Assembly: GCA_016789445.1 (NCBI GenBank)
Contig: JAEUQT010000003.1
Span: 82,600-146,599, forward strand
Origin: a bacterium
Lineage (GTDB): Bacteria > Patescibacteriota > Minisyncoccia > Phycocordibacterales > UBA2100
Direction: 5' to 3'
DNA: 64,000 nt
Part shown: positions 488 through 3,867 of the stretch, in pieces
Layout of the letters: the number at the start of each line of letters is the position of its first letter
Numbering within the stretch: the stretch's first letter is position 1
Notes under the pieces: model-generated
Told to the model about the DNA's origin: nothing
Databases searched by the model: none
What the model saw: only the letters and a program-made list of their open reading frames with translations
Position numbers and translations under genes: made by a program

Positions 488-564
488 TCACTGGATCCCT
501 GCCCTCAGTGGACATTAGGATAATTATACACCATTTCGGCGTATTTTGTCAATATCCTAGACGA

Positions 565-588
565 GGGAACTATATACCTATCTACCCT
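565..588. repeat. left terminal inverted repeat of the IS element
   Basis: GGGAACTATATACCTATCTACCCT. The reverse complement of 2584-2607 is GGGAACTATATAGATAGCTACCCT. Confidence 0.8.
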
Positions 589-598
589 AGACGATAAA

Positions 599-778
599 TT
601 ACTTACGTTCCTGCGTCCATTTATTGCCAAATTCGTCGTAGCCCTCTTTTGGCTTACTAAGCTTATCTATCTTCTCTTCCAGATCGTCTATCCGGTCAGA
701 AAGGCTGCCGAGCGCAGCGCGGTGCGCTAAGAAACCGATAAAAGCGACAATTGCAAAAATCCACAGTAGCCACTGCAT
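599..778 (-). CDS. small membrane/coiled-coil protein (59 aa), inside the IS
   Basis: Hand translation: MQWLLWIFAIVAFIGFLAHRAALGSLSDRIDDLEEKIDKLSKPKEGYDEFGNKWTQERK. Its ATG lies 1 nt after the stop of the preceding mini-ORF. It is below the 60-aa track cutoff. Confidence 0.45.
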   Translation of the reverse strand: MQWLLWIFAIVAFIGFLAHRAALGSLSDRIDDLEEKIDKLSKPKEGYDEFGNKWTQERK

Positions 779-779
779 A

Positions 780-914
780 TCATTTCTTCTTACCTTTTAA
801 TTGCTTCTTGCTCTTATAGCCTGACTTGGCGAGTGCGCCAAGCACCTCATCGAATGAGGCGGGAATGGGTTTATGGATTTTGGGCTTGCGGCCGCGTGTT
901 TCTTTCTTGCTCAT
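780..914 (-). CDS. small basic protein (44 aa), inside the IS
   Basis: Hand translation: MSKKETRGRKPKIHKPIPASFDEVLGALAKSGYKSKKQLKGKKK. Its ATG overlaps the transposase TGA (ATGA), which suggests translational coupling. Confidence 0.45.
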   Translation of the reverse strand: MSKKETRGRKPKIHKPIPASFDEVLGALAKSGYKSKKQLKGKKK

Positions 915-1795
915 GCCGTGAGTTTCCTCAAAGGCATTTTACCACTTTTGGCGATACGTCGTGTCGTATCCTCGAATATCGTCTGCATAGGGCTGGTGCG
1001 GTGGTTGAACCGGAACGCCACCTCATCGACGTATCGCTGGAGGTGCTTCTTGCTCATCGAATGATAGGTACCGTGATAGTTACGCTTGAAAAGCGCCCAG
1101 AATGACTCGATAGAGTTGGTGCTGACGGTGCCGCGTACCCAGTGCTTCTTCCCGTGCTTGATATATCCCCACTGATAGCCGAGCTTCGGCAGCTTCGAGT
1201 ACACGCGAGCCTCGTCGGACATAATCTTCGTCTTAGGATGGATGTGCTTGCGGATTGTCGGCAAAAGGGTTTCTGTCCCACGATCGGGAACGGCAACAAC
1301 GCGGATACGGCCACCGCGCTCTGTCATGCCCATAAGCACCTGCTTCTTGCGGAAGCCGTCTTTGCGCTTGTGCTTGCCTCCGAGGTACGTTTCGTCCACC
1401 TCGACAACGCCAAGGAGTTTAGCCTTGGACTGCTTAAAAGACGCGCGGATACGCATATCCATGAACCATGCCGTCTTCTGCGTAACGCCGACATGTGAGG
1501 CGAGTTCGATGCTGGAGATGCCCTTCTTGCGGGTTGTGAGGAGGTAGATGGCGATGAACCATGAACGCATCGGGATTTTGCTCTCTCCGAAGAGCGTACC
1601 GGTCTTGATGGTGAAGTCCTTACGACACTTGTGGCAGCGGTAGCGGATGCCATCGGAGAAGCGCATGATTTGGTTGTGCTTGCAGTGCGGGCAGTAGTCG
1701 CCCTTGGCAAAGCGCATACGTTCAAAGTAGGCGCGGCACGCCGCCTCGTCGGGGAAAGCTGCCATGAACTGGGCGAGGGTCTTAAAGTTATTCAT
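911..1795 (-). CDS. IS1595-family (ISXO2-like) transposase
   Basis: 294 aa. N-terminal zinc ribbon (CPHC...CHKC) followed by a DDE-type core (VEVDETYLGG ... MSDEARVY ... TNSIESFW), as in IS1595/ISXO2-like transposases. Confidence 0.9.
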   Translation of the reverse strand: MNNFKTLAQFMAAFPDEAACRAYFERMRFAKGDYCPHCKHNQIMRFSDGIRYRCHKCRKDFTIKTGTLFGESKIPMRSWFIAIYLLTTRKKGISSIELASHVGVTQKTAWFMDMRIRASFKQSKAKLLGVVEVDETYLGGKHKRKDGFRKKQVLMGMTERGGRIRVVAVPDRGTETLLPTIRKHIHPKTKIMSDEARVYSKLPKLGYQWGYIKHGKKHWVRGTVSTNSIESFWALFKRNYHGTYHSMSKKHLQRYVDEVAFRFNHRTSPMQTIFEDTTRRIAKSGKMPLRKLTA

Positions 1796-2276
1796 AGCCC
1801 CATCCTATACTCCCGCTTTAGGGTTGTCAAGTGCTGGAAATAAATATCGCTTCTGCCTGTGGATAAACCCCCTCTATACAAGCGAAAGAGCCTTGCTACG
1901 ATATTGGTAGACAGCTGCGGAGCGGCTTGGTCGCCTACCTCCGTTGTCATAGCTTGCACCGAAACAGACAACCTGTTTCTTACTCTCGGCACAGGATCCA
2001 AAAGACCATGCGCCGATAAGGCGTAACCACCGAAAGGTGCAAGCGCCTGCGCCGGGAGTAAGGGATAGGTTTTTTGAATATCGGAAAAGCGAATACCCCC
2101 GAAGTGGGGGCATTAGCGTAGTTGGTCTGGATTGCCTCTCCTAAAAACGGATAGGGCGGGACGACATGAATCCCGGTACAGAACCTATTATTGCGACTTT
2201 AGGCCTAAAGTCTTCGAAAACAAGTACTTGTACGGCTGACACGTTTTATAGTGCCTCCCCCTCGCGGGCTTCCGCG
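1796..2276 (+). ncRNA. hairpin-rich non-coding segment; candidate structured RNA with some RNase P RNA-like motifs (unverified)
   Basis: No credible ORF. Contains several hairpins: CACC-GAAA-GGTG; an imperfect (one-mismatch) AATACCCCC-GAAGT-GGGGGCATT; and the palindromes GACTTTAGGCCTAAAGTC and ACAAGTACTTGT. Motifs GAAACAGAC and ATGAAT..ACAGAACC occur in the order seen in class A RNase P RNA. The canonical GAGGAAAGUCC element is absent. Confidence 0.3.
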
Positions 2277-2299
2277 ATCACCTTCAAAAGGTGATACAT

Positions 2300-2384
2300 G
2301 CGTCCGTGGCGAAACTAGGTAAACGCAGTGGATTTGTAATCCACCATCCCCTCGGATTTGCGGGTTCAAGTCCCGTCGGACGCA
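2300..2384 (+). tRNA. class II tRNA (long variable arm); anticodon loop TTTGTAA = anticodon UGU as folded; Leu/Tyr-like body
   Basis: Manual cloverleaf. Acceptor GCGTCCG/CGGACGC. D arm GCG-AAACTAGGTAAA-CGC. Anticodon stem GTGGA/TCCAC. 15-nt variable arm (ATCC-CCTC-GGAT). T arm GCGGG-TTCAAGT-CCCGT. Discriminator A. No encoded CCA. Confidence 0.85.
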
Positions 2385-2583
2385 AATATCAACTCTCAAA
2401 GACCATAAACAACAGCCAGTTATCTGACTGTCGCGCACGACTGCTAGTAATTGAACGATCCCGCGGTTCCCCCTTTCAAATCGTTTCCGATTACCACCAT
2501 TGTAGACGAAGGTGGTACATGCGGTAAATAGAGTTATCCACGCGGATTCGGACTATACAACAATCTTCATGCGATTGGAATTA

Positions 2584-2607
2584 AGGGTAGCTATCTATAT
2601 AGTTCCC
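2584..2607. repeat. right terminal inverted repeat of the IS element
   Basis: AGGGTAGCTATCTATATAGTTCCC, the inverted copy of 565-588 (21/24 identical). Confidence 0.8.
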
Positions 2608-3867
2608 CTAGACGATGCTGGTCGCTTGTCGTCGCTTACGATGCCACGTAATCGCGAAACGATGCGCCTCAGAATTGGCGAGAAGGATGTCACGTTCAAA
2701 CGATTGTATGGCATTGAGATTGCCGATGAGACGTTCCGGACGATGGCGTTCGTTCTTTACGACACCCACCAGCGGAATGGTGATACCCGCTTTGGAGAGC
2801 ACTTTCTTGGCGGCATTCATCTGTGCCGTCGAGCCATCGACGACGATGACGCGCGGATACTGCCATTCAGGATGAAGTAATCGGCGCGACAAGACTTCAG
2901 TCAGAGCTCCCGGATCGTTGTTGGTGAATCCCTTCACTTTGAATTTGCGATAGGCGCTTTTGAGCGGTTCCCCTTCTTCGACGGCGACCATGACGCCGAC
3001 CGTTTCGGTGCCGGAGGTGTGGGCGACGTCGAATGCTTCGATACGTGCGCCGCGTTGCGGGATGTTGCCGCCGCTGGAGATGCGGGAATCATCCTTGATG
3101 AGCGCGATGTCGTTGATGTGGGTCAGCGCGCCGACCTGACGGCGTGCGCGTTCGGCATCTTCGAATCGTTCTTCTTTGGCAGCCACTTTCATTTCCTTCT
3201 CGAGCTCCTTCACGAGCGTTTTCTTCTTGCCGCTGAAAAGAAGGCAGATGTTGCGGATAGTGATTGCGTATTCCTGCGCATCGGTTTCTCCGGTGCAGAC
3301 GCCAGGGCACAGCCCTATTTGCCTGTTAAAACAGGGACGGCAATTGGCTTTGCCGGACTTGAGTTGTTCCGAGCATGGGGTGCACTTGTCATCGCGATAC
3401 GGGAAGATGCGACGCACGAGCTTCATCGCTTCGCGCAGCGCGAGGCCTTGCGGAAACGGGCCGAAAAGCTGCTTCACCTTCCCTCCCTGCCAGTTGGTGA
3501 AGTATTCACGACCACGCACGACGAGCAGGCGCGGGAATGCTTCTTCGGTCACCACGAGGTAGTTGAAGCTGCGGTTGTTCTTGTCGATGATGTTGTAGGG
3601 CGGCGTGTGCTTCTTGATGAGATTCGCTTCGAGGATCATCGCTTCGAGTACGGAATCCGCTTCTTCCCACGTGATGGTGTCGGCTTCCTGCACCATGGCC
3701 GCGATGGCGGTGGAACGCGATTCCTGAAGGCCGGCATTGAAATAGCTGCGCACGCGGTCGCGCAGCACCGTTGCCTTGCCGATATACAAAATCTTCCCGC
3801 CCTTCTGGAAGCGGTAGATGCCCGGTGTTTCCGGAAGGTCGAATTTTTGGAGGTCATCTTTCTGCAT
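2608..3867 (-). CDS. uvrC: excinuclease ABC subunit C (short form, 419 aa)
   Basis: N-terminal GIY-YIG (GIYRF...ILYIGKA), a UVR-like helical segment, and an RNase H-like endonuclease domain (EAFDVAHTSG ... EAHRFAITWHRKRR). No C-terminal helix-hairpin-helix pair. Confidence 0.9.
   Translation of the reverse strand: MQKDDLQKFDLPETPGIYRFQKGGKILYIGKATVLRDRVRSYFNAGLQESRSTAIAAMVQEADTITWEEADSVLEAMILEANLIKKHTPPYNIIDKNNRSFNYLVVTEEAFPRLLVVRGREYFTNWQGGKVKQLFGPFPQGLALREAMKLVRRIFPYRDDKCTPCSEQLKSGKANCRPCFNRQIGLCPGVCTGETDAQEYAITIRNICLLFSGKKKTLVKELEKEMKVAAKEERFEDAERARRQVGALTHINDIALIKDDSRISSGGNIPQRGARIEAFDVAHTSGTETVGVMVAVEEGEPLKSAYRKFKVKGFTNNDPGALTEVLSRRLLHPEWQYPRVIVVDGSTAQMNAAKKVLSKAGITIPLVGVVKNERHRPERLIGNLNAIQSFERDILLANSEAHRFAITWHRKRRQATSIV

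Follow-up and report, generated by a model that had tools for sequence, protein, structure and literature searches.

The stretch of bacterial DNA considered here, 64,000 nucleotides (nt) of a patescibacterial genome (GenBank assembly GCA_016789445.1, contig JAEUQT010000003.1, positions 82,600 to 146,599; "the window" hereafter means this whole stretch), contains near its left end a mobile element of 2,043 base pairs (bp) at positions 565-2607. It is very probably an intact insertion sequence (IS) of the IS1595 family, more precisely a "transporter IS", which was recently inserted as a whole at the end of the gene uvrC and whose fixed core includes a transfer RNA that is inherited together with the transposase. 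This passenger tRNA is, as judged from its nucleotides, a structurally sound chimera: its body is that of a leucine tRNA, its anticodon loop that of a threonine tRNA.

The element, its ends and its relatives

The element belongs to the IS1595 family by every criterion applied, be it protein domains, terminal repeats or target duplication. Members of the family make 8-bp duplications and have a single transposase gene, whose product combines a zinc finger at its N-terminus with a DDE domain; the zinc ribbon is common to all groups but IS1016 (PMC8101967). The deduced transposase matches the catalytic domain PF12762 (DDE_Tnp_IS1595) from residue 1 to 153 of the 153-position profile (2.4e-42) and, with its residues 15-59, the zinc ribbon PF12760 (Zn_ribbon_IS1595; 6.4e-10). 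With both domains present, the family assignment made in the sequence-only reading, a preceding inspection of the same DNA, stands. All columns that are invariant among 33 homologues are retained, including D134, D194, N227/E230 and K237.

The ends are inverted repeats of 24 bp each, and both start with GGG. The right one (2584-2607) reads AGGGTAGCTATCTATATAGTTCCC, and its reverse complement is identical to the left one (565-588) in 21 of 24 positions. Within the window the repeat is found at these two places only, while shuffled sequences let us expect none, and the pair is the top-scoring inverted repeat of the first 4 kb. The three mismatches, GATAGC on the cargo side versus CCTAnC on the far side, recur in the relatives L002 and L004; they thus reflect an asymmetry between left and right, not decay. 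Directly outside the repeats, CTAGACGA is seen at 557-564 and again at 2608-2615. The transposase recognises both 24-bp ends, and by the usual DDE cut it inserted the whole element into a target staggered by 8 bp, whereby TCGTCTAG was duplicated. The repeats, the target-site duplication and the size of the unit around the transposase frame (911-1795) had all been proposed before, and the coordinates hold.

The state of the locus before the insertion can be read from the closely related metagenome contig L092. Exact-sequence look-ups with the transposase and the UvrC of the window gave no match; L092 was found through the protein of 64 amino acids (aa) encoded to the left of the element, which is identical there. 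On this contig a uvrC of 419 aa is followed, 69 nt further, by the 64-aa gene. The junction reads ...accagtATCGTCTAGgatattgacaaaatacgcc...: uvrC, running out in ATCGTCTAG, is joined directly to the sequence that in the window lies left of 557, and TCGTCTAG is present once. This is the empty site that had been predicted, and it implies that no part of 565-2607 is native to the locus.

The insertion left the coding sequence of uvrC unaltered. Its open reading frame (ORF; 2608-3867, minus strand) ends with ATC GTC TAG within the right direct repeat, just as the sequence-only reading had it. The deduced UvrC has 419 aa and lacks the C-terminal helix-hairpin-helix (HhH) domain; since the protein of the empty-site relative has the same length, the short form is the native one and owes nothing to the IS. 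The element thus sits between the stop codon of uvrC and the promoter of the next gene, i.e., the 64-aa gene. The latter promoter is a perfect sigma-70 consensus (TTGACA-18-TATAAT; 523-552, minus strand) and lies 4 nt from the insertion point.

At the far end a third copy of the target sequence had been noticed, and it is real. It was matched as the 11-mer CCCTAGACGAT at 585-595, where by our estimate about 0.03 exact matches per 64 kb are expected by chance. On the minus strand the far end reads TTTA-TCGTCTAG-GGTAGATAGGTATATAGTTCCC-TCGTCTAG-GATATT, a 22-nt repeat between two targets. The locus has, in consequence, three copies of TCGTCTAG (2608-2615, 588-595 and 557-564), and the chance of finding the third one at that exact position is, again by our own estimate, about 1e-5 to 1e-4. 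Four other elements in which the inner repeat edge was read have no such copy there.

Transposase homologues of 56-98% identity were retrieved with their flanks. To judge from the record names, they come from metagenomes and metagenome-assembled genomes of Patescibacteria, also known as the candidate phyla radiation. The same ends, GGGAACTATATA...TACCCT, enclose the transposase and 0.7-1.7 kb of additional DNA. The sizes of the elements range from 2,043 to 3,864 bp; the window copy is the smallest, and its cargo is entirely non-coding. Perfect 8-bp duplications were seen in 13 of the 14 related elements that have both flanks readable; the target sites are unrelated and mostly A/T-rich. The same ends with duplications of their own at differing sites mean that the cargo moves with the transposase. 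A search for further copies had been suggested in the sequence-only reading; 15 more elements were found, and in each the same repeats bracket a transposase and variable cargo. Two scenarios that would have spoken against a passenger-carrying IS are thereby ruled out: the tRNA and its spacer are not native to the locus, as is evident from the empty site and from the repeats around variable cargo elsewhere, nor is the repeat a motif that is widespread between genes and independent of the transposase.

Counting the window copy, 16 elements hold a tRNA and other cargo between their repeats, each at a site of its own; passenger genes of this kind are what defines a transporter IS. The core of the lineage is fixed and comprises the transposase, a basic protein of 44-46 aa, one or more small membrane peptides and one tRNA gene. 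The rest can be swapped: DUF5343 proteins (with a match to PDC-M34A, a defence candidate of PADLOC), a STAND-like NTPase, an NYN-domain protein and small coiled-coil or winged-helix-like proteins were all found as cargo. The closest relative of the window element is L001 with a transposase that is 98% identical. A distant member, L123 (140-4003 of IMG/VR UViG_3300037247_001878), measures 3,864 bp and is bounded by repeats of its own with the duplication AAAAAGTC. The transposase of L123 is only 29% identical to that of the window (tblastn match), its GC content is 54% in a flank of 66%, and its cargo includes a coiled-coil protein, a GIY-YIG-like protein, DUF6471, a dCTP-deaminase-like protein and the same leucine-type tRNA(UGU), in this case with encoded CCA. 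A scan of viral contigs with the inverted-repeat pattern gave four matches, one of them an element with tRNA. On the viral contig L120 (4261-4328) two terminal repeats of the IS type face each other at a distance of 20 nt; this could be what is left of an element, or a miniature form derived from one.

Downstream of the transposase, two translationally coupled mini-ORFs had been described. The ATGA overlap and the TGA-T-ATG junction are confirmed. Only the first ORF (44 aa) is, however, kept throughout the family, while the second is a variable membrane peptide. The first is a conserved accessory gene of the IS lineage. Its basic, AT-hook-like product of 44-46 aa (ETRGRKPKxHxPIPASFDEVLGAI) is encoded by a frame that overlaps or abuts the transposase stop; of 17 relatives checked, 15 have it. 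In L009, L017 and L018, elements with restriction-modification cargo, it is fused to a Dam-like methylase as its N-terminal part. The copy in the window (780-914) has no Pfam match. In place of the second ORF, relatives have small hydrophobic ORFs of unrelated sequence, and the one of the window (599-778) matches nothing in Pfam or PADLOC. The three elements with the methylase (L017 907-4283, L018 70-2462 and L009 3322-6281) have the same repeats and about 50% transposase identity, and they carry the Dam-like methyltransferase instead of a tRNA. In L017 and L018 it is followed by an ORF of about 160-180 aa, which could encode the restriction partner.

The promoter-like site in front of the transposase is so close to the ATG that the leader of the messenger would be very short or absent. 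L001, L002 and L004 share the block of about 48 nt that contains this site (1797-1844), with 88-98% identity.

The passenger tRNA

A passenger tRNA would be unusual for an IS1595 element, as the sequence-only reading remarked. It turned out to be a constant hallmark of this lineage, and it is itself anomalous. Each of the 16 elements analysed has it; 14 of them were found via the transposase, L121 via the inverted repeat and L123 by scanning viral contigs with a tRNA-only pattern. The window copy (about 2299-2385, plus strand) is the sole tRNA of the 64 kb; it scores 57.9 bits with the Rfam model RF00005, whose gathering score is 29, and 95.1 bits with model R1. The copies tested (window and 12 relatives) all reach 46-59 bits with the Rfam tRNA model, and no other Rfam family matched in the elements scanned, again the window and relatives.

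The tRNAs are 82-92 nt long and their variable arm is base-paired. Compensatory changes are seen in 18 of the 24 base pairs, and the G-U pairs of the tRNA strand outnumber the C-A mismatches, which favours this strand. The consensus is the cloverleaf of a canonical elongator tRNA, with an acceptor stem of 7 bp, a T stem of 5 bp and an anticodon loop of 7 nt; the 8/4 or 9/3 geometry of the so-called allo-tRNAs is not seen. U33 is present in 15 elements, L010 having C33. In L001 (3900-3981) and L004 (3254-3337) the GG of the D-loop has become AG and the UUC of the T-loop UGC, which looks like a paired change of the tertiary contact 18:55 (A18, G55).

The anticodon is UGU in 15 of the 16 elements and UGA in L008. 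Thirteen have the loop YUUGUAA; in seven it is CUUGUAA, identical to that of E. coli thrU, and in the window UUUGUAA. Both the anticodon (NGU) and the loop are thus of the threonine type. The body is not. All 14 tRNAs compared align best with a tRNA-Leu of E. coli: the mean alignment scores are 20.9 (leuV) and 17.1 for leucine, as against 1.8-5.0 for serine, tyrosine and threonine (thrU 5.0, thrT 1.8) and 7-8 for the glycine and arginine controls, so that a class I tRNA-Thr body can be dismissed. The D-arm, UG-GYGRAA-YUGGUA-NACRC (of the type UG-GCGGAA-UUGGUA-GACGC), matches leuV and leuZ. A15-U48 with its invariant U48, G18G19 (apart from A18-G55 in L001 and L004) and the layout of the variable arm are leucine type as well, and A73 is found in every one of the 16. 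The leucine identity set of E. coli is A73, A15-U48, G18G19 and A20a and includes neither the anticodon nor the variable arm (PMC9976931). The passenger tRNA has the whole set, yet it lacks a leucine anticodon (NAG or YAA). BLAST searches against phages and E. coli gave weak matches only, and these were to tRNA-Leu. In short, the body keeps the molecule out of the tRNA-Thr class, the anticodon out of the tRNA-Leu class and the 7/5 geometry out of the allo-tRNAs.

The identity between the tRNAs parallels that between the transposases (rho 0.44; 5 of 2000 permutations reach this value). Divergence in step with the transposase speaks for co-inheritance and against repeated capture from hosts. The strand of the tRNA relative to the transposase is variable; it lies upstream in 14 elements and downstream in two. 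Of course, the tRNA and its spacer could be host DNA that was caught between IS ends, or a decaying hitch-hiker without function. The modular nature of the cargo would fit, as would the lack of any homologue of 1845-2135 and 2403-2555 in the other elements. This explanation is, however, contradicted by the empty site, by covarying stems in 16 elements and by the co-divergence just mentioned, and we regard it as most improbable.

About 790 bp of non-coding DNA, including the one tRNA, precede the transposase in the window element. The hairpin-rich segment and complete tRNA that had been described there are borne out by Rfam and by folding: the stretch 1796-2300 is folded significantly more stably than its shuffled versions, with z = -4.0 for one strand and -4.6 for the other. 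Within 1845-2135, a long hairpin (about 1970-2063; four G-U pairs on the plus strand) ends in a run of T and is followed by a G+C hairpin at 2096-2110. This part has no homologue in any other element, no protein remnant and no Rfam match. The adjoining leader (2136-2299) is 77% identical to that of L001 and can be aligned with L101, L012 and L010, the hairpins varying in sequence and keeping their pairing. With L001 the window copy has little cargo in common, namely the tRNA, the 164 nt in front of it and a short trailer behind it. A tblastn search with the cargo proteins of all relatives detected no degraded cargo gene in the non-coding DNA. The idea that 1900-2290 might be an RNase P RNA beside a native tRNA, which would have spoken against a passenger, was dropped: Rfam has no match at E <= 1, and from the empty site it is clear that this DNA is not native.

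The leader and the trailer are complementary to each other, which places the tRNA within a helix. In 10 of the 16 elements the 28 nt before the tRNA pair with the 28 nt after it, with -15.6 to -24.3 kcal/mol; z is -3.7 or lower in nine of these, L121 being the weakest (z = -1.8). The geometry of the helix is kept while its sequence changes, and most copies have the stronger pairing on the strand of the tRNA. The complementarity may also mark an invertible DNA segment; the strand asymmetry is mixed, the window being opposite to most copies. That such a helix is a general trait of tRNA precursors in these bacteria was considered and rejected, as four host tRNAs on the same contigs have none, which is admittedly a small control.

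Most elements have a structured spacer of about 110-190 nt 5' of the tRNA. One type, with a long GCUCUGG.../...CCAGAGC hairpin, follows DUF5343 or small coiled-coil genes; another one (CCUAAAAACGGA... and GAC-hairpin-GUCUUCGA) is common to the window, L001, L101, L012 and L010. The tRNA usually has the same direction as the preceding cargo ORF. Other tRNA genes were met on the way. Host tRNA-Ile genes with the uncommon anticodon UAU stand about 0.8 kb from the element in L007 (6112-6184) and 2.6 kb from it in L013 (7069-7142). A viral contig, L124, has a 92-nt tRNA (2248-2339, minus strand) with the anticodon UUA, which reads the stop codon UAA, beside other tRNAs.

Features of the element and its insertion site, in window coordinates (strand: + plus, - minus,. 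not stranded)
Feature	Position	Strand	Remark
Target-site duplication, left copy (CTAGACGA, i.e., TCGTCTAG on the minus strand)	557..564	.	Single copy in the empty site of L092
Terminal inverted repeat, side away from the cargo (GGGAACTATATACCTATCTACCCT)	565..588	+	Same end in 15 related elements
Third target copy at the inner repeat edge	585..595	.	Minus-strand repeat has TCGTCTAG on either side
59-aa ORF with N-terminal hydrophobic helix	599..778	-	TGA-T-ATG junction after the ORF at 780-914
44-aa basic ORF (ETRGRKPKIHKPIPASFDEVLGAL)	780..914	-	ATGA overlap with the transposase stop
IS1595-family DDE transposase, 294 aa, intact	911..1795	-	Pfam DDE_Tnp_IS1595 and Zn_ribbon_IS1595
Promoter-like site, TTGACA-17-TAGGAT	1802..1830	-	6 nt 5' of the transposase ATG
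Structured non-coding cargo unique to the window copy	1845..2135	+	Fold z = -4.0
Conserved structured tRNA leader	2136..2299	+	CCTAAAAACGGA motif and GAC-hairpin-GTCTTCGA motif
Passenger tRNA, class II, long variable arm, anticodon loop UUUGUAA (UGU), no encoded CCA	2300..2384 (scan span 2299-2385)	+	Rfam; model R1
Trailer pairing with leader 2282-2299	2385..2402	+	I2: 25 nt, 76% complementary
Non-coding spacer from the tRNA module to the cargo-side repeat	2403..2583	.	Only the last 28 nt common to L001
Cargo-side terminal inverted repeat (GGGAACTATATAGATAGCTACCCT inward)	2584..2607	-	Identical in L001, L002 and L003
Target-site duplication, right copy	2608..2615	.	Includes the final uvrC codons and the TAG stop

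Possible roles of the tRNA

The tRNA would be transcribed from its own strand, as a rule as the last part of the cargo operon, and would be released from the leader-trailer helix, most obviously by RNase III and RNase P. It would then receive its CCA and act at ACA codons. The identity elements of the E. coli leucyl-tRNA synthetase (LeuRS) are present, and the anticodon is ignored by this enzyme, so the tRNA should be a LeuRS substrate. By analogy with the leucine-derived nev-tRNAs of nematodes we tentatively consider, as the likeliest of three possibilities though at less than even odds, that LeuRS charges it and that some leucine is inserted at ACA. It is a still more doubtful step to suppose that the IS lineage installs a heritable low-level ambiguity of ACA towards leucine in a new genome with every transposition or horizontal transfer or, alternatively, that the element depends on the tRNA for its own regulation.

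Several observations do not sit easily with the picture drawn so far. A single simple insertion does not account for the third TCGTCTAG copy (588-595); it may go back to two events in succession at the same target, or targets similar to the sub-terminal sequence may be preferred. In the window copy the helix is degraded on the tRNA strand (-4.6 kcal/mol, compared to -15.0 antisense), and a promoter/terminator scan assigned neither signal to the tRNA. UGU is kept almost without exception, for which a generic mistranslating tRNA does not account. The nev-tRNAs give no detectable mistranslation in vivo (PMC4300185). In the transposases of the elements, ACA stands on conserved threonine columns (16 cases) and never on conserved leucine columns; leucine at these codons would, therefore, harm the transposase itself, and there is no sign of recoding. 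Finally, G1-C72 and C2-G71, which are found in most copies, fit together with G35 and U36 the identity set of the threonyl-tRNA synthetase (ThrRS) as well, threonine identity being composed of acceptor pairs and anticodon nucleotides (PMC9976931).

The last two points lead to a different explanation, a genuine tRNA-Thr that is charged by ThrRS via G35, U36 and the first two acceptor pairs and provides extra decoding of ACA in the style of phage tRNAs. Codon use is in line with it, and so is the retention of UGU in 15 of the 16 elements. The share of ACA among the threonine codons is higher in the transposase than in the host flanks in nine of nine tRNA-bearing elements with host ORFs (window 0.23 versus 0.07; L123 0.19 versus 0.07); the enrichment over the host is mostly 2- to 6-fold, and 1.4- to 1.6-fold in L002, L007 and L012. 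ACA is, in other words, rare in GC-richer hosts and commoner in the AT-richer element. Nearly all elements have a lower GC content than their flanks, L019 and L015 being the exceptions; in the tRNA-bearing ones with host ORFs the difference is 4-14 points. The enrichment favours a decoding role of some kind, although the tRNA-less relatives L009 and L017 have the same ACA excess, which is awkward for a tRNA that is kept for supply. AT-richness should also limit several other codons equally, yet only this one tRNA is carried. The leucine-type body, seen in every copy compared, is a further obstacle: no class II tRNA-Thr is known, and ThrRS, as a class II synthetase, comes in from the side of the variable arm and may in our view clash with a long one. 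On balance, charging with threonine appears unlikely.

The tRNA might, alternatively, not decode at all. It could be a module for processing or stability that offers sites for RNase P and RNase III and sets the 3' end of the cargo transcript, a decoy or antidote against a nuclease or toxin targeting tRNA-Thr(UGU), or an RNA partner of the proteins that act in transposition. The leader-trailer helix, found in 10 of 16 elements and not in host tRNAs, would suit such a role, and so would the position of the tRNA in most elements, behind a cargo ORF and a structured spacer and in the same direction. The cargo includes defence candidates: DUF5343 (PDC-M34A), the STAND-like NTPase, the NYN domain, restriction-modification genes and the dCTP-deaminase-like protein. 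Irregular allo-tRNAs have, moreover, been proposed as non-translational associates of toxin-antitoxin systems or transposable elements (PMC5389517). In the window and in L001, however, the tRNA is intact without any upstream ORF, and it stays constant while the cargo proteins vary. A pure processing signal needs no conserved anticodon loop, no A73 and no tertiary pairs between D- and T-loop, and an enzyme that targets tRNA cannot be identified in the core. A non-decoding tRNA is about as unlikely as one charged with threonine.

Comparison with known systems and significance

An IS is commonly assumed to carry only what it needs for its mobility, and members with passengers blur the line between IS and transposon. 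Within the IS1595 family, members with passenger genes were named "transporter IS" (Siguier, Gagnevin and Chandler 2009, as cited in PMC3129680). The present lineage shares with them the DDE_Tnp_IS1595 domain and the zinc ribbon, the single transposase ORF, repeats starting with GG(G), the 8-bp duplication and the extra genes. It differs in that its defining passenger is a tRNA gene and not a protein gene, and by the additional basic ORF of 44-46 aa. Our literature searches yielded no report of an IS with a conserved tRNA passenger; nor did they yield a bacterial leucine-type tRNA with a threonine anticodon or any class II tRNA with such an anticodon.

Mobile elements that are AT-richer than their host, such as phages, carry tRNAs for codons which they use more than the host does. 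In phage tRNAs the body and the anticodon normally match, and the genes often come in arrays. Here we see a single tRNA with a near-constant anticodon and a mismatched body inside an IS of 2-3.9 kb.

The allo-tRNAs and other irregular tRNAs of metagenomes (PMC5389517, PMC7609411) are also bacterial, have a long variable arm and combine an anticodon with a body that does not match it. Some of them lie near toxin-antitoxin or transposon genes and may be non-translational, though the link to transposons is anecdotal. Their geometry is 8/4 or 9/3 and their identity that of serine, in contrast to the 7/5 geometry and leucine-type body found here within defined IS ends with duplications.

What the lineage means depends on the amino acid, if any, that the tRNA receives. 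If it were threonine, this would be the first class II tRNA-Thr. If the tRNA were not charged, it would be a tRNA-like RNA module of a new sort, linked either with transposition or with the defence-type cargo. If it were leucine, a transposon would spread codon ambiguity between genomes, and the origin of sense-codon reassignment would become testable; an IS1595 lineage of Patescibacteria and at least one GC-rich host would then be a mobile agent of genetic-code change.

Among the known systems, the passenger tRNA would work most like the nev-tRNAs of nematodes. These are leucine-derived class II tRNAs with non-leucine anticodons, are charged with leucine only and let GGG be read as leucine in vitro (PMC3333845). 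The likeness concerns the class II structure, the descent from tRNA-Leu, the leucine determinants and the anticodon for another amino acid (PMC3333845, PMC4300185). The settings differ. The nev-tRNAs are encoded by nuclear genes of animals, carry glycine or isoleucine anticodons and reside outside transposons, and their charging was measured; the tRNA described here is bacterial, has the threonine anticodon UGU and travels within an IS.

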